UHGV virus genome: UHGV-0134783 | DNA: 29,685 nucleotides | Direction: 5' to 3' (one strand) | Origin: a virus | Shown: positions 387 to 29,079 of the stretch, in pieces | Layout of the letters: the number at the start of each line of letters is the position of its first letter | Numbering within the stretch: position 1 is the stretch's first letter | Made by a program: the position numbers and the translations under genes | Notes under the pieces: model-generated | What the model was told of the DNA's origin: nothing | What the model saw: only the letters and a program-made list of their open reading frames with translations | The model's database searches: none

Positions 387-398
387 AACACACCACCA

Positions 399-1256: not shown

Positions 1257-1302
1257 ACACCACCCCCAAACACGACCAACATTAGTAACACACTTCTTTC
1301 TT

Positions 1303-2118: not shown

Positions 2119-2120
2119 CC

Positions 2121-2387: not shown

Positions 2388-2428
2388 AGCCCCCCAACAT
2401 CACACCATCCGCCACAACAACAGCCCGG

Positions 2429-3259: not shown

Positions 3260-3266
3260 TCACTTA

Positions 3267-4424: not shown

Positions 4425-4430
4425 AACCGT

Positions 4431-5372: not shown

Positions 5373-5387
5373 GAACCACACCCCCTA

Positions 5388-8153
5388 TCACACGTAAGCC
5401 AAAGCGTTCAAAGCGTCACGCTGCTGACGCTCAATCCGCTTCGCAAACTCGTTAGGATCACCATACGTGGGCCCGTTAACATTCACCACAACACTCTTCT
5501 CACTCGCACGCCGATACCGGTCGTACGGGGTAAACGAGCCCACAGACGATCGCACACCAAACCGGGCATCCACCACATCAGGCAGCCGACCAGCCACACC
5601 AGACATCGCATCCAACGCCAAACCAGCATTACCGGTGATCCCCTCAGCCAAACCGGCAACAACCTGACGGCCAACCTCGTCACGAAACACCCTCGACGGG
5701 GAATGAATACCCAACACCGACTTCGCAGCATTAGCAACCTGAGAACCCATATTACGCACCGTATCCAGCAGGCCACTCAAAGCATTCTTAATACCGTTAC
5801 CCAAACCAGACACCACATCACGGCCAGCAGACACCAACAGGGACCCCATATTACCGAGAGCATGCCGAATATTGCCAGGCAAATTCCGGAAAAAACCCAG
5901 CACACCATGCACACCACTAGACACAGCGGACCCCATAGCATGCATAGCAGAAGATGCCGCACTCCGGGCACCATTAAACCCGCGCACAGCACCACTACGA
6001 ACCCTAGACGCCATCGACCCGAAAAACCCGCCAACAGCAGACGCCACCGAAGACACAACACTCCGAATCCCGTTCATCGCAGCCGAAACAGCGCCACGAG
6101 CCGCGTTAAAACCAGACCTCACATGGGAGGCAACCGACAAACCAAGCCGCGTAAAAAACCCCACAACCGCGGCAACACCGCCAGAAATGATCGACTTAAA
6201 ACCGTTCATAAACGCAGACGTAAACGATTTGATATGATTCCAGCCATTCTGGATGGCCGTACCCATAGACCTCACGCCAGACACTGAATGATTCACAATC
6301 CACGTAATAGTACGAAGAATAGCGCCAATAACCTTAGCCTCAAAAACGATAACCGCAGCATAAATCTTGGCAATGAATCCAATCACCGAAACATAAATCG
6401 GCATAATAACCGGAATAATGCGGGCCACCACCTGTAGCACGGCGCCAACAACCTGCACCACCACACGCATAATCGACATGATCACCGGTATCAGCGACCG
6501 TATCAAACCAACAATCGGCGGCAAAACAGACATGACAGCACCCAAAATCTGCTGCACAACCGGCATCAAAACAGGTATCAACTGCATGACCACACCAATA
6601 ACCTGCCGTATCACAGCAACAACAGCCTGAATAACCGACATCAGCATAGGCAACAACATGGCAGCAACCTGGGTTACCATACCAATAATCTGGGTGATAA
6701 CAGGCACCAGCCGGGCAATAAGCATACCAATAACAGGCACCAGCCGGGCAGTCAAACCAGCAACCATACCGATAATCTGGCCGAACACTGGCGCCAACCT
6801 GGCAACCACGCCAGCAACAATACCGAACAGTGGCTGCAAGGCGACCATAATCTGCCCCAAAGCCCGGCCAACAACCCCCACAAGCTGCATCACAGCGGCA
6901 CGGAACTGGGCGTTCGTAGCAAACATGGCAGCAAACAAGCCGATCACAATACCGACAGGGCCACCCAGGGCGCGAAACACGCCGCCAAGCCCCCCAGCGG
7001 CACCCCTCAAAGCACCAAACGACGGCAACAGATTCTTCAACGACACAGCCAACGGGGCAAACCCCGCAACAAGCTTCCCAACACCCGCAGCAACAATACC
7101 GAACACTGCGGTGCCGCCAGCAAACATGGCACCCAAATTCACCTTAGGAACAGGCAAATGCAGCCTCGCAAAAATGCCCTTCAACTGCTCCGCCTTGGCG
7201 CGCATCTGTGCATTCATTCGAGTGATCATAGCCGGCATACGGTTAATCCACGCCAAAATAGACGGCATCATCCGCTGAATCCCCTGATCCACCGACGCAA
7301 ACAAAGGCTTCACAGACTCCGTGATAGACTTAATAACCGGATTCAACGCAACAAAAATCTGCCGCAGGCCGTTCAAAAACGGGGCCATAGCCGTAGCACC
7401 CAGATAGCCTAAAGCGCCCTTAACATTCTTCATAGCGCCCTCAAACGTCTTACCAGACGCCTGCGCAGCACCACCCATACCAAGCTTCATCGCAGCCGCA
7501 AACGTGTTAAAATCAATCTGCCCCTTCGACACCATCTGCGACACCTCAGCAGACGTTTTACCAGTCTGCCTAGCCAACAGAGACAGCACAGGAACACCCG
7601 CCATCGTAAGCTGCAACATGTCATCGCCCTGCAACTTACCGCGCGCCATAACCGACGTAAAAATAGCGCCCGTATCCTGAAACGACTTACCCGAAATATA
7701 AGACACATCGGCGACAGTCTTCAACACATCCGTCATCTGCCCGCCAGACTTCACACCCGAAGCAGACAACGCCGCAGCCGTAGACGCCGCATCACCCAAC
7801 GCATACGACGTACCAGTCACAGCCTCAATAGCCGAATTCATAATCGAAGACGTGTCAGACGACGTATGACCCAAACCAGTCAGTTTAGCCTGAGCCTCAT
7901 CAATAGCCATCGCCCTAGCTATACCGCCACCAATAGTCACATCATAGATAGACTTGAGGCCCTTCTTAGCAACATTGATGGCACCCATCATCGCCGCACC
8001 ACCAAGCGCCAACTTCATGCCGCCAGCAAACAAGCTACCCGAACGCTGACCCTCAGCAGGCATCACACCCGACAACTGTTTACCAACATCACTTTTAAGG
8101 CCAGGCATCTTCGTATACAACGACACATATGCGGAAGCAATCTCACCAGACAT
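5388..8153 (-). CDS. tape measure protein
   Basis: 921 aa. Gly/Ala-rich N-terminal part, a long central run of hydrophobic repeats (LIARLVPVIGMLIARLVPVITQIIGMV...), and a Gly/Ser/Ala-rich C-terminal part. Located after the G/GT chaperone pair. ATG at 8153 with a GGGGTGAA SD. Confidence 0.9.
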   Translation of the reverse strand: MSGEIASAYVSLYTKMPGLKSDVGKQLSGVMPAEGQRSGSLFAGGMKLALGGAAMMGAINVAKKGLKSIYDVTIGGGIARAMAIDEAQAKLTGLGHTSSDTSSIMNSAIEAVTGTSYALGDAASTAAALSASGVKSGGQMTDVLKTVADVSYISGKSFQDTGAIFTSVMARGKLQGDDMLQLTMAGVPVLSLLARQTGKTSAEVSQMVSKGQIDFNTFAAAMKLGMGGAAQASGKTFEGAMKNVKGALGYLGATAMAPFLNGLRQIFVALNPVIKSITESVKPLFASVDQGIQRMMPSILAWINRMPAMITRMNAQMRAKAEQLKGIFARLHLPVPKVNLGAMFAGGTAVFGIVAAGVGKLVAGFAPLAVSLKNLLPSFGALRGAAGGLGGVFRALGGPVGIVIGLFAAMFATNAQFRAAVMQLVGVVGRALGQIMVALQPLFGIVAGVVARLAPVFGQIIGMVAGLTARLVPVIGMLIARLVPVITQIIGMVTQVAAMLLPMLMSVIQAVVAVIRQVIGVVMQLIPVLMPVVQQILGAVMSVLPPIVGLIRSLIPVIMSIMRVVVQVVGAVLQVVARIIPVIMPIYVSVIGFIAKIYAAVIVFEAKVIGAILRTITWIVNHSVSGVRSMGTAIQNGWNHIKSFTSAFMNGFKSIISGGVAAVVGFFTRLGLSVASHVRSGFNAARGAVSAAMNGIRSVVSSVASAVGGFFGSMASRVRSGAVRGFNGARSAASSAMHAMGSAVSSGVHGVLGFFRNLPGNIRHALGNMGSLLVSAGRDVVSGLGNGIKNALSGLLDTVRNMGSQVANAAKSVLGIHSPSRVFRDEVGRQVVAGLAEGITGNAGLALDAMSGVAGRLPDVVDARFGVRSSVGSFTPYDRYRRASEKSVVVNVNGPTYGDPNEFAKRIERQQRDALNALAYV

Positions 8154-8160
8154 ACACTAT

Positions 8161-8568
8161 TCACCCCATAATATCAATCTCGCGAGACACCCCGCCACCG
8201 GCACGAACACGCGCCAAAATATCGTCCACCTGCCCAGAGGTAAACCGAGGCCTACGCTCATCCGTAGGCCTCGCCACAGGCTCCGGCTGCCCCTCACTAT
8301 TAGCAGACCTGTAATGATCCAACATGTCCAACACAGCCCACTCACACCACTCAAACGGGCGCTGCCAACCATTCAGGTGGGCCGCCAACTGGCTAGACGT
8401 ATCGGTACACAACACGCCAGCCAGCCGGACAGCCTCACCCCAACACATCTGCGGGCCACCAACACTATAAACAGAAACACCAAACTTGGTGCGGAAATCG
8501 TATTCGATGGCCCCACGATAATCATCAATCAGGCCGTGGAGCCAAACTATTCCCCCAGCGAGGCACCC
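8161..8568 (-). CDS. tail assembly chaperone, -1 frameshifted extension (T part of G/GT)
   Basis: The frame is open from 8568, overlapping the last ~7 codons of the upstream chaperone ORF. A -1 shift from that ORF's frame lands in this frame. A G-run (CTGGGGGAATAG) lies at the overlap. The arrangement is the typical one, between the major tail protein and the TMP. Confidence 0.6.
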   Translation of the reverse strand, partial: GCLAGGIVWLHGLIDDYRGAIEYDFRTKFGVSVYSVGGPQMCWGEAVRLAGVLCTDTSSQLAAHLNGWQRPFEWCEWAVLDMLDHYRSANSEGQPEPVARPTDERRPRFTSGQVDDILARVRAGGGVSREIDIMG

Positions 8569-8843
8569 TTACCGTCAGGCTTGTATTCCATCCACTCACG
8601 GAAAACCTCCGCCACACGAACCATAGGAAGCCCCTCCAGGGCCTCCACCGCGTCAGCCGGGGCGGCAGCCTCCAACATAGAAAACATCACCTCAACCTGG
8701 GCGAAATCCGCAGACTCCCCCGACTGGGCGATCCTGGCGGCACGACGGAAAACGCGGGCAGGAACAGCCTGCGCCGTCTCCTCCGCATCCGCCAACACCC
8801 AGCTACGGTCACCAATCTTCAACGTGTAACCAGTGTCACTCAT
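8547..8843 (-). CDS. tail assembly chaperone (G protein)
   Basis: 98 aa acidic protein. ATG at 8843 with a GAGGGA SD. Immediately after the major tail protein and before the TMP. Confidence 0.75.
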   Translation of the reverse strand: MSDTGYTLKIGDRSWVLADAEETAQAVPARVFRRAARIAQSGESADFAQVEVMFSMLEAAAPADAVEALEGLPMVRVAEVFREWMEYKPDGKGASLGE

Positions 8844-8871
8844 CTATCAACAATCCCTCAAACTATGTGTA

Positions 8872-9513
8872 TCAGTTATTAGACGGCGGATTAGGATCCG
8901 GCTCAGGCTTTGGAGGCTTCGGGGCCGGAGGAGGCGTCGGAGGAGTATCAGCTTTTAAAGCCGTCATCCACCCCCGACCAGACACCGCATCACCCTTATG
9001 GTTAATCTGGGCAGGATACGCCTTCAACGTCACACCATACCCATACACCTCGCCATTCTTACCCTTAATCTCGTCACGATCGACAAGCTCAACCTCAGGG
9101 AAATAGTAGCGAATAACCTGATCGCCATCCACAATATCCATCAACAGGGCGTGAACACCCGTCGTGGCACCCGGAGAAATATCGAACGAACCCGAATCGG
9201 ATCCGGCAGCAACCTTCGACTGCCAAAACAGCTCAATAACCTCCTTCTTAGACTCGATCAGCTGGAAAGAAATCTCGATAGAAGACTCGGTAGCAACCGT
9301 GCGAACAACATCCGCATTCTGCCAAGCCTTCAAATCATCCGTTTTACGCTCAGGCTTAATCTTAAACCCGTCATCAGACAGATACCCTAAAGCTGTAAGC
9401 CCGGAAGGAACCGTCTTCACACCATCAATAGTATCACCCGCGTGCGCGTCACCAATATAAACGTCGCCAGTAACCGCTGAACGAACATTAGACGCTTTAC
9501 GTGTTGCAGCCAT
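8872..9513 (-). CDS. major tail protein
   Basis: ATG at 9513 with a GGGGG SD preferred over the ATG at 9525, which has no SD. Pro-rich C-terminal tail (TPPTPPPAPKPPKPEPDPNPP). Preceded by an AT-rich leader. Position is conserved before the chaperones. Confidence 0.8.
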   Translation of the reverse strand: MAATRKASNVRSAVTGDVYIGDAHAGDTIDGVKTVPSGLTALGYLSDDGFKIKPERKTDDLKAWQNADVVRTVATESSIEISFQLIESKKEVIELFWQSKVAAGSDSGSFDISPGATTGVHALLMDIVDGDQVIRYYFPEVELVDRDEIKGKNGEVYGYGVTLKAYPAQINHKGDAVSGRGWMTALKADTPPTPPPAPKPPKPEPDPNPPSNN

Positions 9514-9565
9514 CACAACCCCCATTAAATATCAAACAATTACATTAAAACAAAAACAAATACGT

Positions 9566-9937
9566 TTACTCAGATTCGACAGGCCTACATATCAGCTCGA
9601 ACAGCGAATACACATCAAAACGTGCACCATCAACCAGCAAATCAGGACCAGTAGACCGTTTACAGTACACCACCGGATCACCATCAACCCCGTCAGCCAG
9701 AACAGCCTCAATACGACGCGCCAACGACATAGCACGATCCGGCGTATCAGAAAACACATTCACCCGCAAAAAAACACGCTCACGAACATGCAACTGCGGG
9801 CCACCATCCAACGCCAACCAAATCAGGTCACCGCCGAAATCGTCAGGCACCGTCCCTGTACACGGTATCCCAGACAGCCAGCCATCATCCTTGAGCACGC
9901 GTTTAGCCCACACACGCGGATCACCGTAAACAATCAC
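9566..9937 (-). CDS. head-tail joining protein (tail terminator-like position)
   Basis: 123 aa. GTG start overlapping the upstream stop (GTGA). Fourth of four small genes between the capsid and major tail genes. Confidence 0.6.
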   Translation of the reverse strand: MIVYGDPRVWAKRVLKDDGWLSGIPCTGTVPDDFGGDLIWLALDGGPQLHVRERVFLRVNVFSDTPDRAMSLARRIEAVLADGVDGDPVVYCKRSTGPDLLVDGARFDVYSLFELICRPVESE

Positions 9938-10224
9938 GAAGCCGCCCCAATCGACCGGGCCAGCGTGCCATGCTTCGCCTCAATACGCTTCCCGCCCTTA
10001 TAGGTGGTGCCAATCCTCGCCACAGCCTCGACACGGTGAACCTGCACCTCCGACGATAATCCGCCACGATACTGGGCCTTATCGAAAGAGTTACCGCCCA
10101 CATTCGCCGAGGCCGCACGCCTAACCCGCTCGCCACGCTCAGCCAACATAGCCTGAACCCCAGGGGACTTCAACACCTCACGAATACCCGGCAAGTTCAG
10201 CTTCACATTCACATCCTGAGCCAC
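9934..10224 (-). CDS. head-tail joining protein
   Basis: 96 aa, GTG start. Third small gene in the connector module. Confidence 0.6.
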   Translation of the reverse strand: MAQDVNVKLNLPGIREVLKSPGVQAMLAERGERVRRAASANVGGNSFDKAQYRGGLSSEVQVHRVEAVARIGTTYKGGKRIEAKHGTLARSIGAAS

Positions 10225-10230
10225 TACCCA

Positions 10231-10578
10231 TCAGCCCTTCTTACGCTTCACATTGATCTGCGTACCAGCATCCCAACCGGACATGGGGTGATGCCACACG
10301 ATAGGAGACCCGTCAGCCTCCCACACAACACCCCGGATACGCCACCTGCAACGATAATCAGCACCCACAACAGACTGCTTGAAAAGCATCGACCAATGCT
10401 CATAGTCAGAGTCACGCCCCGCGGCCTCATCCTCCTGCGAAACGGAAGCATAGATGGCCACGTTATGAAACACAGTCTCGACAGGCTTAGACCAGTCTTC
10501 CACCTTGTCGCCAAGATCATCGACACGAACAGTCGGTTGAAGCATCACAACCGTTTCACCATACGGAAAACTGGTCAT
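10231..10578 (-). CDS. head-tail adaptor / head closure protein
   Basis: ATG at 10578, one nt after the upstream TGA, with a GGGAG SD. The longer ORF reaching 10734 lies inside the upstream gene and is rejected. Confidence 0.6.
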   Translation of the reverse strand: MTSFPYGETVVMLQPTVRVDDLGDKVEDWSKPVETVFHNVAIYASVSQEDEAAGRDSDYEHWSMLFKQSVVGADYRCRWRIRGVVWEADGSPIVWHHPMSGWDAGTQINVKRKKG

Positions 10579-10579
10579 A

Positions 10580-11041
10580 TCATATCTCCCACAAAGGGCC
10601 AGCGTAGCCGTTAATATTCGACCCGCACGAGCAACCCTCACCCCACACCGTGGAACACACCTCAGAATGCACATATCGACCATTAATAGTTGGGGTAATA
10701 GTGAACGCTTTACCAGCCCCACCATCACCCTCACACAACTTCTTCAACGCAGCAATCTCAGAAGGCCACAACAAATTCGTGGGAGTATTCGACCGTGTAG
10801 TCTGAGCAAACGGGCCCGCAGACTCGTACTGCACCTGACCCGAAACCCCGGTATCATTCCAGCGCAACAGGGCCCTGCGCAGAATAGCCTTAGCGGCATC
10901 CTTATATTTGAAATCCGGTTTAGCGATACAGGGGGCGACACTGACAGCTACAGCCTCCACATCAGCGATCATCGCCTCAAGCTTCTCTCTAGGAATATCG
11001 GCGAAAGGCTCAATATCCTCAGGCTTCAAAATGATACCCAT
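10580..11041 (-). CDS. head-tail connector protein
   Basis: ATG at 11041 behind a GGGGGTGG SD. The ORF-track start at 11068 is a GTG with no SD. First gene after the major capsid gene. Confidence 0.65.
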   Translation of the reverse strand: MGIILKPEDIEPFADIPREKLEAMIADVEAVAVSVAPCIAKPDFKYKDAAKAILRRALLRWNDTGVSGQVQYESAGPFAQTTRSNTPTNLLWPSEIAALKKLCEGDGGAGKAFTITPTINGRYVHSEVCSTVWGEGCSCGSNINGYAGPLWEI

Positions 11042-11084
11042 CAACACCACCCCCTGCACACAGTACACATTCGCTTATCTTGTA

Positions 11085-12029
11085 TCAGTTACCAGCCGGA
11101 GGAGGAGTCGGTGCAGCCTTCTCCTTCACCACAGCAAACGAATCAAGCGACTCAATCGCAACATACAGCACAGCCTCGGCACGAACCATAACCTCATTAT
11201 GGCCCTTCAAGTCACGGCCAGTCTGATCCGGGTCACCATACTCGATCAGCTCGATCGGGAAGTTACGCTGGAACCCCCAATGAACACGAGAGAAATCACC
11301 AACAATAGCCTTAACACCAGAGGCAGGCGACATCTCCGGGGCACCCGAAACAGTCGAAGAAGCACCAACATTCAGCCCACGCCAATTATCCAAACCAGCA
11401 AACCCGGCGGCAGGATACATCGGCTGACCGGCAAGCGGAGACCCCTTCGGATACACCTCAGTAGACAGAGCAAACGAGAACGCCGGATCCAAAGCAACAC
11501 CGTTAGGAACCTGCAAACCAGCCCCAGCGATAAGGCCGACAGCCTTGACCAGATCAGCCGTAGCGGAATCGGTGGCATCAACCGTCTTCTTCGTCTTATC
11601 CAGCGACACCTTGACAGCCGCAGCAGGCTTCCCAGTGGCAGGATCAATACCGTGGAAAGCAATCAGATCCACGGCGCGACCAATCGAAGCACCCAAAGCG
11701 GGCGAAATCAGATCCTGCAAAACACCCAGACGGTAATCGGCGTCAGCCCACATAAACTCGTCGCTTACGCGCTGCTGAGTCACAACCTTGATAGGCTGCG
11801 CAGTAAACGCCGAAACATCAACCGAAGCGGAAGGCTTAACCTCACCCTCGCCAACAATCTTGGCGCGAGGAACACCAGAAAAAACGGCACCCTTAACAGG
11901 GCCGAAAATAGTCGGCTGCTCCGGCGAAAGCTTCGCCAAAACACCAGAATCGATAGCACGGTCACGAACCGCACCAATCATAGAACCAGGAAGCTCAAGC
12001 TTACCTGCAGAAAGAAAATCGTCAGCCAT
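11085..12029 (-). CDS. major capsid protein (HK97 fold)
   Basis: 314 aa. ATG with a strong TAGGAGA SD. Follows the scaffold gene. Sequence features typical of actinophage HK97-like capsid proteins. Confidence 0.85.
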   Translation of the reverse strand: MADDFLSAGKLELPGSMIGAVRDRAIDSGVLAKLSPEQPTIFGPVKGAVFSGVPRAKIVGEGEVKPSASVDVSAFTAQPIKVVTQQRVSDEFMWADADYRLGVLQDLISPALGASIGRAVDLIAFHGIDPATGKPAAAVKVSLDKTKKTVDATDSATADLVKAVGLIAGAGLQVPNGVALDPAFSFALSTEVYPKGSPLAGQPMYPAAGFAGLDNWRGLNVGASSTVSGAPEMSPASGVKAIVGDFSRVHWGFQRNFPIELIEYGDPDQTGRDLKGHNEVMVRAEAVLYVAIESLDSFAVVKEKAAPTPPPAGN

Positions 12030-12035
12030 CAGAAA

Positions 12036-12590
12036 TCATCTCCTAGAATTATTGACAAGAGCATCCACAAACGCGACACCCTCACGTCGTTTAACATCAT
12101 CAACGGGGGCACTCCCCGCAAGACGGCGCACACCCGCGCCACCACCACTATGGTCGATCAAACCCTTCAAAGCCTTAGCAGACTCCACCAATGCTTCACG
12201 ATCGCCACCGTGCAAGAAAGCGACCGCATCACCCGACAGGCCACACTCGGCAGCCACCTCACGCTTCACACCCTCAAGAACAAACCCATTAATCCGGTCT
12301 TCGAGTTCCTCATTCTTGCGGCGAAGATCATCAATCACAGACCCCGCATCACCATCCGAGGCGCGAAGCTTCTCCAACTCGGCGAAATTACTTTTAGCAC
12401 GAGACTCCCACTTACGGGCCTCAGCCTTCCAATCCGTGCCAGAAGAAGACTCCTCCTTCACGGAAACATCACCGGCATGATCATCGCCGGCAGCCTGCCC
12501 ATCCTTCACAACATCAACAACGTCTCCACCCTTTCCGGGCTCAACAGCATCATTGTCAACATTCTGTTCTTCAACTTTTTGATCGGCCAT
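12036..12590 (-). CDS. scaffolding protein
   Basis: 184 aa, highly acidic, predicted coiled coil (EELEDRINGFVLEGVKREVAAE). AAGGAG SD. Immediately upstream of the capsid gene. Confidence 0.75.
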   Translation of the reverse strand: MADQKVEEQNVDNDAVEPGKGGDVVDVVKDGQAAGDDHAGDVSVKEESSSGTDWKAEARKWESRAKSNFAELEKLRASDGDAGSVIDDLRRKNEELEDRINGFVLEGVKREVAAECGLSGDAVAFLHGGDREALVESAKALKGLIDHSGGGAGVRRLAGSAPVDDVKRREGVAFVDALVNNSRR

Positions 12591-12693
12591 AGCCTAACCC
12601 TATACTCCTTGCGGAAAACAACACAACATTGTTGACCCCCGTGCGGGAGACAACCCTGTGCACCGATAACCGGCGACACACAACCGGAAACCA

Positions 12694-13449
12694 TCATCTC
12701 ATGTCGCCAACAGTACGCATAGCCTTCAAAATATTGCCAGGCGACTGCTGCAACCCATGATCATCAACCCACTCACGAGCCTTCTCATACGTCCTCTGAT
12801 ACTCGGCATCAGCCCTATTCGGTTCCCAAGGGCCAACAACCTCAACCACCGTACACCCGCAATGATCATGATACTTCGAACCAAACGGACGCCTACCGGC
12901 ACGCTTATGACGCCGCGTATGACCAGTAGTAAGCGCCCGCTCCCTCGTCGTATAATCCGACCTCGTAGCCAACATGGCACAAAACGCGCACGGATCACCA
13001 TCAGTCACCCTGCGCCACGACCTACCCTGCGCACCCGCAGACCACTCAACCGTGTCACGGCCAGCATTCATCACAGCCCGATTAAAACCCGCCGCCATCG
13101 CACCAATCGTGTCATTCGCCCTATCCGGGTCACTCTTAAGAATCTTCATAGTCGAAAACGACCTAGCCAACGCGGCGGCAGCATCAAACTCGTCATACAC
13201 AATCAAACCAGGATCCACACCATTCAACCGGCGAAAATCCGACACAAACCTGGCAGCCAACGACGCCGAACCATCATGGCCGGCACGCTCCAACTCCCCA
13301 CACAAACGCACATACTGCGCATCTGTCATCTTCCCGGAATGCCACAAACGACCAAGCTCGGCATAATACCCAGCGTATTTCCCAGCAAACCTGACCGCCT
13401 CACGCTGATACTCAGTCGCAGCAAGCCTCGACGCAACACCCGAAGCCAT
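12694..13449 (-). CDS. head morphogenesis / minor capsid protein (MuF-like position)
   Basis: 251 aa, between the portal and scaffold genes. Cys cluster DPCAFCAML...HDHCGC. ATG at 13449. Confidence 0.55.
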   Translation of the reverse strand: MASGVASRLAATEYQREAVRFAGKYAGYYAELGRLWHSGKMTDAQYVRLCGELERAGHDGSASLAARFVSDFRRLNGVDPGLIVYDEFDAAAALARSFSTMKILKSDPDRANDTIGAMAAGFNRAVMNAGRDTVEWSAGAQGRSWRRVTDGDPCAFCAMLATRSDYTTRERALTTGHTRRHKRAGRRPFGSKYHDHCGCTVVEVVGPWEPNRADAEYQRTYEKAREWVDDHGLQQSPGNILKAMRTVGDMR

Positions 13450-13455
13450 CGCCTA

Positions 13456-14781
13456 TCAAACCTCGTTAGTTTGACGAGAAATAGCCCCAGCCAGCGCCGC
13501 CAACGGATCCGAAGACTCGGCACGATGACGCATCACAGCCTCAACCTGCACATCATCCAAACCCAACATCTCCAACACCGTCCGAGAATCCGCCGGCAAA
13601 ATACCGGCACCAACAAGCTTCGTCACAGCATCAGCCGTAGCCGCCCTGGTAGGCGTCGACGCATCACGCCAACGCAAACCAACATCACCAAAAAACGCGG
13701 CCTCATCAACACTCGAATCAAGCGCCCTGGCAGCCAAGAAACCAACCGACAGCCAGCCCTGACCAAACGACGTCTGCCTGCGTTCAGCACGCTTCACAAG
13801 CCGAGACTCCTCGGCAGCCAAAGCCTCCCCACTAGGCGGGTTAGACGTGATAAACCCGAAATAGCGTTCCGGAACAGCCGCCTCACCCGCAGTCAACTGC
13901 GCCAACAGCCTCATCTGATCCGAATACGGTGTAGGCGAATTGACAGGAAACGACCCCACATTCGGGGTATCACCGTCATCATCCTTATCCACAGCCCACA
14001 CAGAAGCCATCGACAGGACCCAGCCAGGCTGCGAAAACTCATCCGCGCTCACACCAGTCACCCAACGTTGAGGATACGCATAAAAATCACGATTCACAGA
14101 CTGCCCCAACAGTGTGCGAACAGCCTCATCAGTGTAAGCCCTAATAGACCTCGTAATCTCCGAACGCCCATCAATACGCGACGTCCTACGCCGATTCACA
14201 ATCGGCACCAACGGAACCGCCCCAAGCACATTCGGTATACGGCCCGTCTCAACCCACTCACGAGACCCACGCCGCTCCACCTGAACAATCACATCAGGCA
14301 ACAACAACTCAGCCTCAACAACCTCAGGATCACACGTCTGCTGCACCACCAAACCCGCATCCAAACGAGACCCATCAGCAGAAAACCGGCCAGTACAATT
14401 CTTCGGCGACTGCGGACGAACCAACACCGACCCATCATCCCGGGGAATAACAGCCACAAACGACAAACCAAAAATCAGTGCATCCAAATGCACATCACAC
14501 GACGCAGTAGCAAGCCGATTCGCAGCATACACACCATCCAGACCGTAGCCGTCACCATTAGTCCAGCCAAGCCAATCCAGACGCTCCTCCAAAGCATCCA
14601 CAGCAATACCAGGCCACGACACCACCGTCTGCACACGCTGCAACTCCGGCGGAATAGCCACCCCCAAATCACGCACCCGATTAGAGCCCTCATAGTAGCC
14701 CTCAATACGGCAATGCCACGAAGACAACCTTTGGATACGATCAAACATGCCCTCAATCAGAGCCAACTCATCCGAGTTCAT
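13456..14781 (-). CDS. portal protein
   Basis: 441 aa. ATGA overlap with the large terminase stop. Size and position are typical of SPP1-like portals. Confidence 0.85.
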   Translation of the reverse strand: MNSDELALIEGMFDRIQRLSSWHCRIEGYYEGSNRVRDLGVAIPPELQRVQTVVSWPGIAVDALEERLDWLGWTNGDGYGLDGVYAANRLATASCDVHLDALIFGLSFVAVIPRDDGSVLVRPQSPKNCTGRFSADGSRLDAGLVVQQTCDPEVVEAELLLPDVIVQVERRGSREWVETGRIPNVLGAVPLVPIVNRRRTSRIDGRSEITRSIRAYTDEAVRTLLGQSVNRDFYAYPQRWVTGVSADEFSQPGWVLSMASVWAVDKDDDGDTPNVGSFPVNSPTPYSDQMRLLAQLTAGEAAVPERYFGFITSNPPSGEALAAEESRLVKRAERRQTSFGQGWLSVGFLAARALDSSVDEAAFFGDVGLRWRDASTPTRAATADAVTKLVGAGILPADSRTVLEMLGLDDVQVEAVMRHRAESSDPLAALAGAISRQTNEV

Positions 14782-16289
14782 ACCACAGACACCCGCTTCC
14801 TACCAGACCGTTCACGCCGCCTAGCCTTCGCCATCTTCGCACCAAGATAAGCCAAAGACACAGCCTCCAAAGGAACCTCAGAACCATCCTTAAACGAGGA
14901 ACCCCAACCCCACGCAGAACCCTTCTTCTTCTGCACAGCCGACCTCACAGCAATATCCAACATGTCACGCCTCGAATCAGCCCTAGGGTGAGAAACCACA
15001 CCAGACCTTACACCCTCCAGGAACGCCTGACACGCCTCCACATACACCCCAGTATCAGCCACAATCACGCCACGACCCGGAACACCACGATCCGTCAACG
15101 CCTTCTGCAACAACACCGCACCAGACCCGGCAACCATGATCTTTTCAGTGTCACCCCAACGCAACGCCAACCAGTCAGCCAGCTGGCCCACACCATCAAC
15201 AATCGTGCCAGACAGGCCATCAATAACCTCAACATGAACCCCAGCATCAGTCTTGCCAGCACCAGCTAGCGCGACACGATCCCCCGAGCGAGAAAACGAG
15301 ACACCAAAAACCTTCCCGCCAACCAGAGCCGCCTCACCCACAGCCGACTGAACCCACTTATCGGCTGGTATCACCGACGAAGCAGACTGGCCACGATCCC
15401 ACCAGCCAAGCCGCTCCCGAGCAAACCCGGCCGCAGACATCGACTCATGCTCATCCGAGACTGTACCAAAATTCAGACGCCTACCCAGCGCAGGATTAGT
15501 ATCACCAGCCAACTTCCGCCACTGCCGCGACACATCATCCGGATCAGACTCGTCAGGAATCGAAAACTCCGTCCACGCAAACCTTTTACCACCCGACAAA
15601 GCCTGCCCACGCAAACGCAACACCACAGACCCGTCAGCCAACGGCCCAGGAGGAGTCCCCAAAAAAATCTGCTGAGGATCACCCGAAGGAGCCGCGCTCA
15701 CCGTAGGAAGCAAAGCCTCCAACTGCTCATCCGACAACTCCTGAGCCTCATCACACACCAAATCATCAACCGTAAACCCGCGAGCAGAACCCCGAGAACG
15801 GGCCACAAACTCAACCGAACCCCAACCCGGACAGCCACACTTACGCTCAAACGTGGCACAATCCGGATGATGCAACACAATAGCCTCCTGACCATTCGTC
15901 GCCCGAATCGACTTCACCATACGATACAAGTCAGGAAACTGCCGCTCATTCTCAAAAAACGACCTCAACCGCATAAACGCCTTACGAGCCGACTTCAACT
16001 CGTGAGCCGTATGCAAAATACGGCGACCCTGAATAGTCGCCTTAAACAACTCCACAACCTCCAAAATAGCATTCTTGCCATTCTGGCGAGGCACAAACAC
16101 CCCACACACACCCGAAGCAAGCCTGCCATTACCACCCACAGCAAGCCAATCATCCAACACCTGCTGCTGCCACGGATCAGGCGTCAACCCATAAGCCCTA
16201 CCAAGCTCACCCGCATCCCCGCCAGCAGACACCGAATACGCCGCAGCCACACGATGACGAGGCACCTGAGACCCAACAACACCAGACAC
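14778..16289 (-). CDS. terL: terminase large subunit
   Basis: 503 aa. Walker A VPRQNGKNAILEV and Walker B LVCDEAQEL in the N-terminal ATPase. C-terminal nuclease-like region. GTG start 4 nt after the small terminase TGA. Confidence 0.9.
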   Translation of the reverse strand: MSGVVGSQVPRHRVAAAYSVSAGGDAGELGRAYGLTPDPWQQQVLDDWLAVGGNGRLASGVCGVFVPRQNGKNAILEVVELFKATIQGRRILHTAHELKSARKAFMRLRSFFENERQFPDLYRMVKSIRATNGQEAIVLHHPDCATFERKCGCPGWGSVEFVARSRGSARGFTVDDLVCDEAQELSDEQLEALLPTVSAAPSGDPQQIFLGTPPGPLADGSVVLRLRGQALSGGKRFAWTEFSIPDESDPDDVSRQWRKLAGDTNPALGRRLNFGTVSDEHESMSAAGFARERLGWWDRGQSASSVIPADKWVQSAVGEAALVGGKVFGVSFSRSGDRVALAGAGKTDAGVHVEVIDGLSGTIVDGVGQLADWLALRWGDTEKIMVAGSGAVLLQKALTDRGVPGRGVIVADTGVYVEACQAFLEGVRSGVVSHPRADSRRDMLDIAVRSAVQKKKGSAWGWGSSFKDGSEVPLEAVSLAYLGAKMAKARRRERSGRKRVSVV

Positions 16290-16293
16290 CTAC

Positions 16294-16602
16294 TCAGGCC
16301 CCCCTACGCTTCCTATACCGGTCAATCATCGCCACCGCAGAACCCCCACCACGGCCACCAGACGCCACATCAACCGAATACCTATCCAACATGCCCATAA
16401 AAGCCTTCACATGAGCACGAAGCGAAGCCACCAAATCCGCGCGACCCTCACGCCACACCACATCATGAATCACCGCAGCATCCATAAGAAACAACCACTC
16501 CTCATCCGACACATACGGCGCGCGACTGTCCTCACCCCACACACGCCACCAACGACGCGTCTCCCCACACCAATCGTGTCCCTCAGGAAGCTCAGGCTGC
16601 AC
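16294..16602 (-). CDS. terS: terminase small subunit (start uncertain: longest ORF extends to GTG 16665, 2 nt from the cos site; GTG 16602 behind GGTGGTGAG preferred)
   Basis: First gene after the cos site and immediately before terL. The N-terminal extension KYLPFVVLSVCRLFVLVVSVV of the longest ORF is hydrophobic and lacks an SD. Confidence 0.55.
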   Translation of the reverse strand: MQPELPEGHDWCGETRRWWRVWGEDSRAPYVSDEEWLFLMDAAVIHDVVWREGRADLVASLRAHVKAFMGMLDRYSVDVASGGRGGGSAVAMIDRYRKRRGA

Positions 16603-16666
16603 AACACTCACCACCAACACAAAAAGTCGACAAACAGACAAAACCACAAAAGGGAGGTATTTCACT

Positions 16667-16677
16667 AAGCCGTACGA
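16667..16677. other. cos site: AAGCCGTACGA, the reverse complement of the 11-nt 3' cohesive-end sequence TCGTACGGCTT recalled for P. acnes phages; physical genome ends
   Basis: Exact 11-mer found precisely between the HNH endonuclease gene and the small terminase. Reverse complement of 16651-16666 gives AGTGAAATACCTCCC as the virion left-end sequence. Confidence 0.7.
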
Positions 16678-16728
16678 GGTCTTGCACGGGTGTGCAGGGG
16701 GTGGTCCCGGTGGGGGTTGGCGGGTTTT

Positions 16729-17031
16729 TCACCATGGAATCAATGTTTTTGTGGTTTGTTGTTGGAAACTAATGTTTGGTTCACTGCGATTGCCTTTGCT
16801 TCTGTTGCATGTTCTGCAGATGATTTGCCCGTTGTCGAGGGTGTTGAGTCCTCCGCGGCTGACGGGTGTGATGTGGTCGGCTTCGGGGCTGGTTGGCAGG
16901 TCGTGTGTGTCCCAGGCTATCTGGGCTCCGCAGAGTGGGCATTCGGTTTGGCCTTGCTTGCGTGCTTGGGTGATGAGTCTTGCCCGCCAGCGTCGGTGGG
17001 CTTGGCTGGCTGTGCGGTTGGTGCGTGCCAT
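16729..17031 (-). CDS. HNH endonuclease (packaging-associated, adjacent to cos)
   Basis: 100 aa. CPLCG...DHITPVSRGG...NGQIICRTCNRSKG is an HNH motif with a zinc-binding Cys pair. ATG at 17031. Ends 52 bp before cos. Confidence 0.85.
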   Translation of the reverse strand: MARTNRTASQAHRRWRARLITQARKQGQTECPLCGAQIAWDTHDLPTSPEADHITPVSRGGLNTLDNGQIICRTCNRSKGNRSEPNISFQQQTTKTLIPW

Positions 17032-17107
17032 GATGTGTCTGTTCCTCGCCTAGCCCTGTACTGGTCTTATTTGCCCCTCTAACGGCCTGGAATCGTCTGG
17101 GGGTATG

Positions 17108-17149
17108 AATACCCTACCGATGCCCTGCTGATCGATTCTGGGGGCTGTT
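17108..17149. promoter_or_regulatory. composite motif site A: TGGGGGTATGAATACC (17108-17123) + CTGATCGATTCT (17138-17149); 77-118 bp upstream of HNH on the minus strand
   Basis: The same two motifs recur at 18709-18743, with the ATCGAT-containing motif inverted, and in degenerate form at 19733-19754. Confidence 0.4.
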
Positions 17150-17559
17150 TTGTTCGTTTGAGGGGGTGTTCTGTTTGTGTCGGGGTGGTTGTTTTTTCCA
17201 CTACCCCCCGGCATGTGAGAAAGATCACATCGCCCCCCAGCTGTGTCAAAAGAGAAGGACACGGAAGAAAAATGGGGGTGGGTGTGTGTTCGCGTTTCAA
17301 GGCTTAGCGCCTAGCGCTGAAGTACACAGGCTAAGCGGGAACACCTTCAAAGTTTTTAAAGTCTTCTACATATAATATACACTTTAAGTCTTACCCGGTG
17401 TTAAGGGTGTTAGCGTGACACGCCGTACGCCTTCAGCCGAACACGCCAAGCATAAAAGGGACACGGGTGTAAGAGTGTGGGGAGTGTACAAACCGGGAGC
17501 GTGCGACCGGTGGTACACGAGACACACGGCGAAAGTCCATCGGCGCTGATGGTAAAAGG

Positions 17560-18050
17560 TTTCTCTTCTCCCCTGATGAAGAAAAGAAGAGAAGAGAGAA
17601 AGTACCAAAGAGAGTAGAGAAGTAAAGAAGTTAACCCTTTAACTCTTCTAAAACTTTTATAACTTATAAGCTTTAAGACTTATAGGTTATAATATTAAAG
17701 TTTAAGACTGATGGTTAATTTTAAGTACTTAAAGTCTTTAAAGTATCATAGTTACTTTAAGTGTTTAACTCTTTAAGTCTTAAACACTGATGTTAAGTTT
17801 ATATCCTTAAGCGCTAAGTCCTTAAGGTTTTATACTTAACTTAAGTGTTAAGGTTATATATTTACTTTAAGACTTTAAAGCTTTTATAGTAACTTAGATC
17901 CTTAAGGGCTAAGCCTTGAAGGTTTTAAAGTTACTATAAAGTACCTAAGACTGATGCCGAGCCCTTGAGGGGGCTCGGTGCTAAGCGTTAAGGTCTTAAG
18001 GGCTTAAGGGCTTAGCACTAAGCCTTGAGGCTTTTAAGTCTTTGGTAGAC
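17560..18050. repeat. AT-rich island densely packed with TTAAG / CTTAAG / TTTAAGACT / TTTAAGTCT short repeats (candidate replication origin / protein-binding array)
   Basis: Visibly far lower GC than the rest of the genome. TTAAG-type motifs occur every 10-20 bp. No credible ORFs. Confidence 0.6.
17961..17995. repeat. 35-bp direct repeat copy 1 with GC hairpin (CCGAGCCC-ttgagg-GGGCTCGG)
   Basis: CTGATGCCGAGCCCTTGAGGGGGCTCGGTGCTAAG. Near-identical copy at 18490-18523. Confidence 0.7.
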
Positions 18051-18489
18051 TGATGGATGTAAGGGTGAAAGCCGCGTCAGCGGATTTCGGCCTTGCGTCC
18101 AGCTGGCTACCTGTCCAGCCTATCATATGCCACCTGGGATGAGTCAAACTGGTGGATTTGGCTCTATAGGCGGGTTTGAGGGGTGTAAACGGGTGTTTTT
18201 GGTGGTAAAGGTCCAAAAATTAAACCTAAACTTTTCCTTAAATTTTCTTAGAGTCTTGTAACCTTTACAGGTGGTTAAGGCTGAAACCCCTAGCCAGAAC
18301 GGATTTCACCCCCGAACAGCTGTCACACTTTACTCCTGTGTCCTTTCCTAACACGCTAGGCCCATCAGTGCTGAGGGTGTTCCCTCAGGCTTTCGAGTAC
18401 TCGTCGCTGAGGCTCCTCGTACTCTCAAGCCTTCCCTGATGGCGTGTACCCCTTTCAGGGCTGTGCCTGATGAACTGAGCCTGCTCGGG

Positions 18490-18523
18490 CTGATGCCGAG
18501 CCCTTGAGGGGCTCGGTGCTAAG
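18490..18523. repeat. 34-bp direct repeat copy 2 with GC hairpin
   Basis: CTGATGCCGAGCCCTTGAGGGGCTCGGTGCTAAG, one G shorter in the loop than copy 1. Confidence 0.7.
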
Positions 18524-18708
18524 ACCTTAAGTACTTAAGTTAACCTTAAGGTGTGAAGGCTGATGTCCCCCCTTCTTTCTTTTACCGTGTCCTTCTTCCC
18601 CCCACGGTATCCAACACTGTCCACATAGTTGAGGCTTAGCTAACCAGGATAGGGGTTGATGATCTATGCCGAGATGGTTGATCGTGTATCGGGCTCTGGG
18701 ATGCGTCT

Positions 18709-18743
18709 AGAATCGATCAGAATTGCTTGGGGGTATGAATACC
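18709..18743. promoter_or_regulatory. composite motif site B: AGAATCGATCAG (18709-18720) + TGGGGGTATGAATACC (18728-18743), upstream of the early gene block
   Basis: Shares an identical 16-mer with site A plus the 12-mer in opposite orientation. Confidence 0.4.
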
Positions 18744-18865
18744 TAGCCCCCACCCTGTAAGGCGCTCCTAGGCGTACCCCTGAAGCTTTAAACGGCATTT
18801 CTGGGCTACACCCTTCATGCCAGATTGGAAGAGTGGCCTCGAGAGTGCACACTAAGCCAGGGGGA

Positions 18866-18881
18866 TGTGATACATCTCACA
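18866..18881. promoter_or_regulatory. TGTGA-N6-TCACA palindrome (CRP/GlxR-family binding-site consensus) ~180 bp upstream of the first early gene
   Basis: TGTGATACATCTCACA has perfect 5-bp arms. A TTGACA hexamer lies at 18987-18992. Confidence 0.3.
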
Positions 18882-19059
18882 CACCTAGATGATAGATCTT
18901 ATGTCTCAGCTCGGCGCCTTGACTCGCTAGATCATCTGTCACACCCGACACACCCCATGAAACGCTCAACCGGTTTGAGCGCAACCTTGACAGTGGGTCA
19001 CAGCCCACACACTCTAGAAACCACAACAACCCCCACAACCACCGAAAGGAACATCACTC

Positions 19060-19368
19060 ATGGATGGCACACTCATCACACCATCATTCACCAGCCTCTA
19101 TGGGCAGACAGAAATCGACCCGCTCAGCCTCCACAGCCTCACCGGAAACCATTCAGACGACATCGATCTCGATATGGTGCGCCGCATGTACCACGCTAAA
19201 GTACAAGAAGCCATACGACTCATCCGACCCCTGTGGACTGTCACCCGCGACAGCGCCGTATACGGAGACTGTGACTGGCGCCACCTATCCGAGAATGAGG
19301 CCGAGGAGCTCCACGATCTCATCGACATGATCGACGTAGACGCCATCCTCGCTGAAGCTATACGATAA
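19060..19368 (+). CDS. early protein, hypothetical (paralog of next gene)
   Basis: 102 aa, acidic. SD GAAAGGAAC 8 nt upstream of the ATG. Confidence 0.7.
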   Translation: MDGTLITPSFTSLYGQTEIDPLSLHSLTGNHSDDIDLDMVRRMYHAKVQEAIRLIRPLWTVTRDSAVYGDCDWRHLSENEAEELHDLIDMIDVDAILAEAIR

Positions 19369-19399: not shown

Positions 19400-19711
19400 A
19401 TGCAAAAGATCGCCGACCACTTCACCCAGCTCTACAGCCCCGCCAGCTACGACTGCCCTGAGCCTTTCGACCTGACACGCCTCGAAAACCTCCCCTGCGA
19501 CCACATGGATTTTGAGGGCCTCGCCGAAACCTACCGGCAGCATGTGGAAGCCGAACTTCATAAGCTACGCCCCAACACGTTCATCGCCACCGATGGCACC
19601 GTGTTCAGCCATGACGAGTGGAAGCCACTCACCAGTGAGGAAGCCACGCAACTCTACTGGAACGTGACCCGCATCAATGTTGGCCAACTCCTCACCCTGT
19701 GTGCCCGATAA
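19400..19711 (+). CDS. early protein, hypothetical (paralog of previous gene)
   Basis: 103 aa. Same CCAGAAAGGAAC ribosome-binding context. Shares FTxLY, D..D......Y...V......LRP, T.D..V....W..L[ST]..EA..L and a C-terminal L....R with the 19060 gene. Confidence 0.7.
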   Translation: MQKIADHFTQLYSPASYDCPEPFDLTRLENLPCDHMDFEGLAETYRQHVEAELHKLRPNTFIATDGTVFSHDEWKPLTSEEATQLYWNVTRINVGQLLTLCAR

Positions 19712-28680: not shown

Positions 28681-29079
28681 ATGAACCGGACCTACACCAC
28701 CGCAGAAATAATCCAAGCCGCGCAATGGATCTGGAACGGAGGCCCATGGAAACCGAGTGTCGAACCAGGAATGCCACCCCCACCAACCGCGCCACAACAC
28801 CACGGCAACAACATTGTTACCATGATCGATCTACAGCTAGCCATCGACGACTACACCCTCACCTGCCAGCCATCCAAACAGCGAAAACACTTCGCCCGAC
28901 TAGCCGCATTCCGGGAAGTCTATGGATATGACCAAACATATGCGTCGGCCGCCCAACGACTCGGAGTCACCCGGCAAACCGTGAAACAGTGGGCAGACCA
29001 AACACTCATCACCCTCACAGGCTACGCAAACAGTAGATACTATCCAGACGAAAACGACGACAGCACAGGGATGGGATAA
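28681..29079 (+). CDS. sigma-70/ECF region-4-like HTH protein
   Basis: 132 aa. QRKHFARLAAFREVYGYDQTYASAAQRLGVTRQTVKQWADQTL is a close fit to sigma region 4. Confidence 0.6.
   Translation: MNRTYTTAEIIQAAQWIWNGGPWKPSVEPGMPPPPTAPQHHGNNIVTMIDLQLAIDDYTLTCQPSKQRKHFARLAAFREVYGYDQTYASAAQRLGVTRQTVKQWADQTLITLTGYANSRYYPDENDDSTGMG

Follow-up and report, generated by a model that had tools for sequence, protein, structure and literature searches.

We analysed the region at positions 17032-19059 of the UHGV virus genome UHGV-0134783, a 29,685-bp sequence (hereafter, the window) that is the full-length genome of a Cutibacterium (Propionibacterium) acnes siphovirus of the genus Pahexavirus, rotated and reverse-complemented with respect to the GenBank convention. 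The region separates the late genes, on the minus strand, from the early genes, on the plus strand, and we somewhat favour reading it as a composite control region made up of several elements. At its edges, promoters and operators would serve the two divergent sets of operons, late (HNH, cos, terminase) and early, the candidate elements being two TGTGA-N6-TCACA palindromes, two 42-nt repeats ending in GGGGGTATGAATACC and TAnnnT boxes of the host type. The tract at 17560-17670, together with the adjoining AT-rich island, would be the most likely site of replication initiation, probably helped by transcription in the early direction (plus strand) through the tract, as in c2-type phages. A 539-bp accessory module would give a structured plus-strand RNA, with a hairpin at its predicted start followed by a sequence conserved in a phage of C. 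avidum, by analogy with the mycobacteriophages L5 and D29. We consider a functional plus-strand RNA probable, and an origin of replication within 17250-17990 possible, if not quite probable.

The 2-kb region itself is already known. A search with 17032-19059 gave matches to 232 phage records, all of them C. acnes phages with 83-87% identity, and the matches fall at about 26.9-29.1 kb of genomes of about 29.5 kb. It is the locus of P. acnes phages for which Marinelli 2012 (PMC3448167) describes more than 1 kb of non-coding sequence near the right end and proposes an origin or a regulatory role; the origin hypothesis is, then, already published for this phage group, and the same locus appears in Bruggemann & Lood 2013 (PMC3652107). 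The window shows the same location, between the first leftward (early) gene and the right-end HNH gene, more than 1 kb of non-coding sequence, the same fall in GC (to about 25%), runs of low complexity that are conserved, and an internal GC-skew switch. There is no difference in kind from the published Pahexavirus region, this phage being without a sub-segment of about 165 bp. The CTGATG boxes, the covarying hairpin, the CRP-type sites and the PAS50 junction at 35-nt repeats are new with respect to the passages of that literature that were consulted; a feature described in 2007-2012 gains detail, and no new kind of element is revealed. For the phage therapy of acne and for engineering of the skin microbiome, C. 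acnes phages are leading candidates, and a map of the constrained elements, which separates the invariant parts, the deletable parts and the structured strand of one large non-coding region, guides the cloning of origin or phagemid fragments, the search for early non-coding RNA (ncRNA) and the choice of sites for mutation.

The homologous regions of 77 IMG/VR or GenBank relatives were extracted and aligned, and the conservation counts given here are over the resulting 78 sequences (mean pairwise distance of the non-coding regions of 17% in a diverse subset). No open reading frame (ORF) of at least 25 aa in 17032-19059 was intact in more than 52 of the 78 related regions, and no excess variation at the third codon position was found. 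HNH, terS and the first early gene, taken as controls, were intact in all relatives, with a diversity at position 3 that is 2-3 times that at position 2. A preliminary description, made from the sequence of the window, had reported an ORF-poor 2-kb region flanked by divergent late (HNH-terminase) and early units; the absence of a conserved ORF and the positions and strands of the flanking genes bear it out on both points. The annotation of phage PA6 places three small ORFs (gp45-47) in the region, and these were discarded as genes, being neither conserved nor periodic in their codons. A series of coupled mini-ORFs at TGATG was also discarded, the ORFs from those ATGs stopping arbitrarily after 4-29 codons by manual reading.

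The constraint on this non-coding sequence is organised in blocks. Columns conserved at 96% or more group at 17354-17431, 17556-17670, 18033-18056, 18091-18125 and 18157-18180, and further at 18380-18440, 18490-18515, 18610-18645 and 18706-18745. Variable, indel-rich stretches are found in the right half of the AT-rich island (17730-17950), at 17992-18020 and at 18472-18560. The purine-tract block of about 115 bp (17556-17670), which adjoins the AT-rich island, is near-invariant (at least 96% conservation in the 78 phages), and the 15-mer AGAAAGTACCAAAGA (17597-17611) inside it is identical at 15 of 15 positions in the C. avidum phage. The purine/pyrimidine tracts noticed in the preliminary description are present at 17560-17631 and 18566-18600.

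The lowest-GC 300-bp stretch of the genome starts at 17607 (25%, compared to 54% for the genome and 43% for the lowest stretch elsewhere), which confirms the AT-rich island reported earlier. TTAAG is concentrated in this part of the region: 35 of the 54 sites of the genome fall within 17384-18550, together with 9 of the 10 CTTAAG sites, and the island holds 25 TTAAG sites compared to 6.3 ± 2.4 in first-order Markov resamplings of the island. Among 73 relatives the mean is 15 on the plus strand vs 6.5 on the minus strand, and the length of the island ranges from 231 to 561 bp. The saturation with TTAAG at 10-20 bp spacing, as it had been described, holds for the enrichment and fails for the regularity, the spacing being irregular (7-36 bp). 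The conservation of the repeats across related phages, which had been suggested as a check, was found for the positions of CTGATG and not for those of TTAAG.

The strongest structural evidence comes from the plus strand, where 18059-18096 can form a 17-bp hairpin closed by a GUCA loop. Two alleles of this hairpin differ at many positions and both keep the 17 base pairs. In the alignment 93.4% of the cells are paired, six pairs are changed on both sides, and there are 62 G-U cells vs 2 A-C cells. Of 500 shuffles, none reached the observed values for cells paired, cells changed on both sides and covariation score, and 49 of them attained the observed count of pairs changed on both sides; controls in a slid register had only 34-50% of cells paired. 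The predicted folding energy of the plus-strand RNA is −26.6/−30.6 kcal/mol (z = −6.3/−7.8), compared to about −13 kcal/mol (z of about −2) for the minus strand, and the asymmetry is also seen under DNA parameters. Therefore, the covariation, the G-U bias and the fold asymmetry together support the selection of the hairpin in a single-stranded molecule of the plus strand, which is the sense strand of the early genes. A structured ncRNA had been listed as an alternative in the preliminary description, and this plus-strand-specific hairpin with compensatory substitutions gives it direct support.

The surroundings of the hairpin are consistent with a transcript. The TAGACT box at 18046-18051 is kept in 99% of relatives and lies 7 nt upstream of the hairpin, and the start predicted from it (about 18058) coincides with the first base of the hairpin. 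Downstream lie a 31-nt invariant stretch, a replaceable segment of constant length, then TTTGG and an invariant block. At least three alleles of the replaceable segment (18127-18156) were found, each able to form a hairpin; this 3' hairpin, after the 31-nt stretch, is variable in sequence and has a tail of 3-4 U in C. acnes phages. From its sequence, the stretch from the hairpin to the variable segment would fit a small RNA in which a 5' hairpin is followed by a conserved region free of pairing and by a weak terminator. Equally, 18127-18156 may be the spacer of a minus-strand promoter, since this strand reads the promoter-like GTTTGA (18144-18149), N21 and TAGGCT (18117-18122), with both boxes kept in 99% of relatives; the two readings may also hold together, as a convergent pair. 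A scan of the region for terminators remained at chance level and did not flag the 3' hairpin.

More tentatively, the module of about 540 bp could be a dedicated ncRNA locus, in which an RNA of 100-140 nt from about 18058, with the hairpin and the 31-nt stretch, would target the host, pseudolysogeny or superinfection, or the control of replication. The convergent minus-strand promoter GTTTGA-N21-TAGGCT may in this case oppose the RNA, as a sense/antisense pair. If this is true, more than 99% of natural isolates retain an RNA that a phage can do without in the laboratory (PAS50), and the ncRNA together with a protein-bound, oriented CTGATG array would be a new regulatory system for therapeutically relevant phages. 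Rfam gave no match at gathering thresholds in the whole window, and in permissive mode only chance-level matches in the region (E ≥ 0.076); a scan for tRNA or tmRNA found none, and no target of the invariant 31-mer was found on the transcribed strand within the phage genome.

Elsewhere in the region, the differences in folding energy between plus and minus strands largely track the G+T composition, and the candidate hairpins at 17476-17532, 18640-18710 and 18555-18625 gave no consensus structure. The long imperfect hairpin at 18387-18432 provides little covariation evidence because it is nearly invariant. It includes the dyad CGAGTACTCG at 18394-18403, one of two named in the preliminary description; the other, CTGAGGG-tgtt-CCCTCAG, had been placed at 18376-18396 and is at 18371-18388, where it is not conserved as a hairpin and reads CTGATG in 25 of the 78 relatives.

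CTGATG is the commonest hexamer of the region, with 10 copies on the plus strand vs 1 copy on the minus strand, and eight of the sites are conserved in position, each in 54-78 of the 78 phages. In the relatives the plus strand has 4-13 copies and the minus strand 0-3, with the count of only 4 found in the PAS50 deletion variant. Perfect CATCAG-N2-CTGATG palindromes at 17537-17552 and 18363-18377 are found in 25 of the 78 phages, always with a spacer of 2 nt and never everted; the CTGATG pairs look more like a dimeric DNA-binding site than like an RNA motif. The boxes in one orientation are probably binding sites for a phage or host protein. The only active C. acnes restriction system recognises AGCAGY, and CTGATG was thus rejected as a host restriction or methylation motif; a hammerhead suggested by CUGAUGA was dropped, with no credible Rfam match. 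CTGATG is also co-oriented with transcription in the late genes (1-15250), with 20 copies on the coding strand vs 1 on the other, by our estimate about fourfold above the mononucleotide expectation, which may be an effect of codon usage (GCT GAT GGT-type codons).

Towards the edges, other motif families have the features of operators. Perfect TGTGA-N6-TCACA palindromes occur twice in the genome vs 0.01 expected, both within the region, with conserved half-sites and spacers that vary freely. This is the operator consensus of the CRP/GlxR family in Actinobacteria, which is not drawn from a C. acnes study, and the two perfect 16-bp matches are candidate sites for such a protein. The two copies of the 42-nt repeat are identical at 29 of 42 positions, ungapped, and their core is conserved in relatives; the 14-mer of the repeat is found only in copy 1 and at 18730, and the TAGAAT box of copy 2 is kept in 99% of the 78 relatives. 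The four AAGGACACGG boxes are symmetric about 17900-17925 or so, that is, about the AT-rich island, and all three exact RGGACACGG matches in the genome fall within the region. The outer 12-bp inverted repeat of these boxes is nearly invariant in the 78 relatives, with no strand-specific wobble pattern. A long-range RNA pairing of 17253-17282 with 18567-18596 was rejected, since mismatches occur on both strands with almost no compensation, which fits duplex-DNA sites better.

According to published P. acnes work (PMC3848588), vegetative promoters share the consensus TAnnnT, centred at −9, and a weak GnTTnG element at about −36. The TAnnnT boxes of 17354-17395 are conserved in 86-100% of relatives, on both strands, which makes this block a candidate promoter for rightward non-coding or early transcripts and for leftward late transcripts.

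A natural deletion shows which part of the region can be lost. Two copies of a 34/35-nt repeat, CTGATG-CCGAGCCC-TTGA-GGGG(G)CTCGG-TGCTAAG, bound 539 bp that are missing from phage PAS50 (FJ706172); among 203 matching records, the junction is contiguous in this one alone. These two copies are also the GC-rich hairpin repeats reported in the preliminary description. Lood & Collin 2011 report the deletion as "almost 500 bp in a non-coding region" and describe PAS50 as forming plaques and showing pseudolysogeny. The missing segment holds the hairpin, 4 of the 10 CTGATG boxes (3 of the eight conserved) and the block that has a counterpart in the C. avidum phage. As PAS50 is viable without these 539 bp, the module is accessory, or dispensable in the laboratory, and not an essential origin core; it is kept in essentially all other isolates. 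A second indel concerns the window itself, which is without about 165 bp near 18935 (about 18925-18945) that 71 of the 78 relatives carry, in the area annotated as gp45 in PA6. Direct repeats of CATCTGYCACACCC flank this indel, a further CTAGAATCGATCAG...(T/C)ATAATCCTACCCC element lies within the missing piece, and the relatives L081, L035 and L080 have the extra DNA.

The comparison can be extended to the C. avidum phage CA1NRNZ (L083; helicase 69% identical), which has a 1.5-kb non-coding region in the same position. Its AT-rich island (28% GC) has the same relative position and is flanked by purine and pyrimidine tracts, and a 70-bp block is 80% identical to 18111-18180, with its own hairpin before it and a hairpin with a U6 tail after it. 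The block TTTCCTnAnATTTTCTTAG, a CRP-like TGTGACATATGTTACA and two copies of a GC-rich hairpin are present as well. CTGATG and TTAAG are replaced by other oriented short repeats (CTGTTA, TAGTA), and the module order differs. A search with the HNH of CA1NRNZ gave only unrelated high-GC prophage-like contigs without such a region. The pattern of the conserved module was found in 92 IMG/VR contigs (all 80 matches listed are Pahexavirus-sized or shorter) and gave one chance match in 185,579 species genomes, at 4193-4255 of L097, in a coding region of an unrelated 'Methanospirillum' MAG (metagenome-assembled genome) contig with no similarity to the window. These searches of species genomes and IMG/VR thus added no relative beyond those described.

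Among the products of the early block are a DnaB-like helicase, a primase and two exonucleases, but no polymerase. With a helicase and a primase and neither polymerase nor recognisable initiator, the phage must recruit host functions at a cis site. The search for an initiator or repressor among the early proteins gave only a 132-aa protein from the far end of the early block (28681-29079, plus strand) with a sub-threshold helix-turn-helix (HTH; Sigma70_r4 at 22.8 vs a cut-off of 24.1 bits, PHROG 'sigma factor' at 1e-5). From these similarities, this HTH or sigma-region-4-like protein is a candidate regulator and a candidate binder of the palindromes of the region; it is probably the repressor-like ORF23 discussed for phage KIT08.

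The strand bias of the genome is strong and uniform, with a plus-strand GC skew of −0.2 to −0.38 and an AT skew of +0.2 to +0.47. It does not change between the late genes of the minus strand and the early genes of the plus strand, and is reversed only in 16647-18211, the cumulative GC skew having its minimum at 16647, beside cos, and its maximum at 18211, inside the region. HNH is the one late-strand gene with a C/A-rich coding strand, like the early genes, and its composition together with the reversed skew points to a segment that was inverted or acquired, or that is replicated in the opposite direction. Since the reversed segment also covers HNH and could be inverted or acquired, the skew alone does not place an origin in the region.

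Several results weigh against a composite control region with an origin and a transcribed module. By the usual convention the switch at 16647 is origin-like and that at 18211 is terminus-like. No cluster or enrichment of DnaA boxes (TTGTCCACA-like) was found in the region, the spacing of TTAAG is irregular with individual copies not conserved in position, and Pfam and PHROG searches of the phage proteins recognised no Rep/O-like initiator, many early proteins being of unknown function. On the transcription side, a consensus sigma-70 scan gave promoter-like sites at chance level and did not flag 18022-18051, and TAnnnT is common in AT-rich DNA (89 in the 2 kb). The hairpin at 18059-18096 is the only solid one, the other predicted structures of the region being invariant or without covariation support, and the variable segment 18127-18156 admits two readings, as a terminator-like hairpin on the plus strand or as a promoter spacer on the minus strand. 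The idea of CTGATG as an exposed single-stranded RNA motif (a protein sponge) had to be given up, as it is not preferentially unpaired (unpaired probability in the predicted plus-strand RNA of 0.042 vs 0.040 for permuted hexamers and 0.109 for the background). Finally, searches of the literature on C. acnes phages (transcription, origin, phagemid work) gave no functional or expression data for the region. The origin proposed in the preliminary description thus stays circumstantial: its ORF-free setting with an AT-rich island and repeats holds, and no regular iterons conserved in position, initiator gene or DnaA cluster were found; the terminus-like skew at 18211 and the absence of 539 bp of the core from the viable PAS50 count further against it.

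A pure transcription-control or ncRNA locus, consisting of an early leader, small RNAs and operators, with the origin elsewhere (at the cos/terS-HNH junction or in the helicase-primase block), is a less probable reading that we nevertheless take seriously. The skew minimum at 16647 and the terminus-like maximum at 18211, the plus-strand covariation of the hairpin, the conserved promoter-like boxes and the failure to find iterons, DnaA boxes or an initiator gene are all in agreement with it, and the right-end non-coding region of L5 and D29 is an RNA locus, not a demonstrated origin. It is opposed by the AT-rich island, which is the only strongly meltable DNA of the genome, and by the 115-bp invariant tract, kept as far as the C. 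avidum phage, with a constraint above the usual need of a leader; the reversed skew, as it includes HNH, may mean an inverted or acquired segment and not the direction of a fork.

Two known systems resemble the region in layout. According to Dedrick et al. 2017 (PMC5712189), the cluster A mycobacteriophages L5, D29 and StarStuff produce abundant stable small ncRNAs from Pleft at the right end. These phages have the same arrangement, in which the late genes run to the right and the early genes to the left, starting at the right end, and they have a distantly related helicase, and their ORF-free stretch of about 500 bp, from the early promoter to the first early gene, is likewise divergent, indel-rich and in part dispensable for lytic growth. 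There is, however, no sequence homology, the region studied here is four times longer and its transcription is predicted; the stoperators of L5 are 13-bp repressor sites, whereas CTGATG is a 6-bp putative protein site. In the lactococcal Ceduovirus (c2-type) phages, which are small siphoviruses of the cos type, the origin likewise occupies non-coding DNA that separates divergently transcribed early and late genes. This origin region varies between phage subgroups and has two flanking early-direction promoters, for which the two 42-nt repeats and the TAnnnT boxes are here candidates only, and an untranslated structured transcript, PE1-T, which is thought to trigger replication; the covarying plus-strand hairpin of the present region sits in the segment dispensable in PAS50. 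The c2 origin differs in showing no sequence similarity, in its length of about 0.5 kb and in having been shown experimentally to drive plasmid replication; a similar function would here be assigned by analogy.

A classical iteron origin, in which a phage initiator would bind TTAAG/TTTAAGWCT or CTGATG iterons and melt the AT-rich DNA beside them, appears unlikely. Like the lambda ori, the iteron plasmids and the P4 ori/crr octamers, the region places short repeats beside an easily melted segment, and the repeats are strongly enriched and strand-biased, with conserved CTGATG positions and palindromic pairs; the different repeats of the C. avidum phage (CTGTTA, TAGTA) are those expected from co-evolution with a cognate protein. 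However, these repeats are of 5-12 bp and irregularly spaced (TAAG at 7-36 bp, CTGATG at 23-386 bp), without conserved positions for TTAAG, and no set of at least three direct repeats of about 17-22 bp, regular and conserved in position, was found in the region next to its AT-rich unwinding element. Unlike in those origins, no adjacent initiator gene or DnaA boxes were found, no Rep/O-like initiator was recognised, and 4 of the 10 CTGATG boxes (3 of the eight conserved) are inside the segment missing from PAS50.

It is still less probable that the region is a centromere-like or maintenance site of the pseudolysogenic episome, with a partition or segregation protein on the CTGATG boxes. Plasmid centromeres typically contain arrays of short repeats in a set orientation, and C. 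acnes phages persist as unintegrated circular episomes. However, the spacing of CTGATG is irregular, PAS50, without the segment holding 4 of the 10 boxes, is still pseudolysogenic, and according to Marinelli 2012 (PMC3448167) no partition genes are known in C. acnes phages.

The ends of the GenBank records map to the cos site, whose 11 bases TCGTACGGCTT are also reported as the cos end of phage KIT08 (PMC12426086). As cos lies outside the region, beyond the HNH gene, the packaging (cosB) alternative of the preliminary description is not supported. A cosB-like accessory packaging site could invoke the proximity of the terminase genes on the circular map and a second copy of the cos-core 8-mer in an invariant block, and it is scarcely credible with cos 355 bp to the left, the HNH gene between and the core features 0.9-1.9 kb away. 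Hardly better is a decaying or neutral DNA made of small-gene remnants (PA6 gp45-47) and slippage-made low-complexity sequence, which would suit the three annotated ORFs and the indel-rich or deletable parts (the right half of the AT-rich island, the 539-bp PAS50 deletion, the segment of about 165 bp) and is already largely refuted by long blocks invariant in 78 phages, several of them kept in the C. avidum phage, by the compensatory hairpin, by motif statistics far beyond chance and by the lack of conservation of those ORFs.

Table 1. Features of the non-coding region and its flanks, in coordinates of the window.
Feature	Position	Strand	Remarks
Large terminase terL	14778-16289	-	Flank
Small terminase terS	16294-16665	-	Flank
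cos, 11-nt 3' overhang TCGTACGGCTT	16667-16677	-	Between HNH and terS, outside the region
HNH endonuclease gene	16729-17031	-	Left flank; PHROG 338, E = 3e-30; PA6 gp48, annotated putative endonuclease
Non-coding region	17032-19059		Published right-end non-coding region of P. acnes phages
42-nt direct repeat, copy 1	17072-17113	+	Ends in near-palindrome GGGGGTATGAATACC; candidate operator or alternative-sigma -10 (GGGTAT)
TGTGA-N6-TCACA site 1	17214-17229		Perfect CRP/GlxR-type palindrome
AAGGACACGG box	17255-17264	+	Further copies 17458-17466 (+), 18335-18344 (-, one mismatch), 18585-18594 (-)
Invariant block with TATAAT (17371-17376)	17354-17395		Overlapping TAnnnT on both strands; candidate bidirectional promoter region
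Degenerate CCATCAG-NN-CTGATGG palindrome	17537-17552		Perfect in some relatives; partner 18363-18377 also degenerate in the window
Pyrimidine tract, CTGATG, long purine tract	17560-17670	+	0.93-0.99 identity; most columns at least 96%; candidate origin core or R-loop-forming tract
CTGATG array	17573-18565	+	Conserved starts 17573, 17708, 17787, 17951, 18050, 18436, 18490, 18560; less conserved 17546, 18467
AT-rich island	17607-18040		Strand-biased TTAAG; candidate DNA-unwinding element; right part indel-rich
35-nt repeat, copy 1	17951-17985	+	CTGATG + GC hairpin + TGCTAAG; left end-point of PAS50 deletion
Accessory module	17986-18524		539 bp between 35-nt repeats; missing from viable PAS50
Promoter-like site	18022-18051	+	GCCTTG/TTGAGG then TAGACT 18046-18051; predicted start about 18058
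17-bp hairpin, GUCA loop	18059-18096	+	38 nt; plus-strand-specific; two allelic forms
Module shared with C. avidum phage	18097-18180		Invariant GTCCAGCTGGCTACCTGTCCAGCCTATCATA, variable constant-length segment 18127-18156, then TTTGGCTCTATAGGCGGGTTTGA
TTTCCTTAAATTTTCTTAG block	18233-18251		17/19 identical to C. avidum phage; at least 96% conserved
Long imperfect hairpin AGGCTT..GAGTAC...GTACTC..AAGCCT	18387-18432		Includes CGAGTACTCG dyad; nearly invariant
35-nt repeat, copy 2	18490-18523	+	Right end-point of PAS50 deletion
Invariant block with single DnaA-box-like CTGTCCACA	18610-18645		Box 18617-18625, one mismatch to TTGTCCACA
42-nt direct repeat, copy 2	18702-18743	+	TAGAAT -10 box 18708-18713, GGGGGTATGAATACC just downstream; candidate early promoter + operator
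TGTGA-N6-TCACA site 2	18866-18881		Perfect CRP/GlxR-type palindrome
Early-gene approach	18962-19059	+	Hairpin 18962-18981; conserved TTGACA 18987-18992; ribosome-binding site GAAAGGA 19044-19050; ATG 19060
First early gene	starts 19060	+	Right flank

Some observations concern the flanks. The 8-mer GCCGTACG of the cos overhang core recurs at 17422-17429, in an invariant block about 750 bp from cos, which could be due to chance (about 0.06 expected in 2 kb) or could mark a second recognition site of the terminase or of HNH. In CA1NRNZ a DNA methyltransferase gene (L083 8371-9324) is inserted between the non-coding region and HNH, and the early block contains anti-restriction genes that are absent from the C. 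acnes phage.

On the right side, the first two early genes (19060-19368 and 19400-19711, plus strand) are paralogues, both of PHROG 919, of unknown function. The conserved hairpin CGCTCA-ACCGGTT-TGAGCG (18962-18981), in front of them, has TTTCAT after it when read on the minus strand, and it lies about 25-40 nt downstream of a minus-strand TAGAGT box (19011-19016, kept in 99%; predicted start about 19004). By their sequence and arrangement, this box and this hairpin could yield a very short RNA transcribed leftward, or form an attenuator, in antisense to the early leader.

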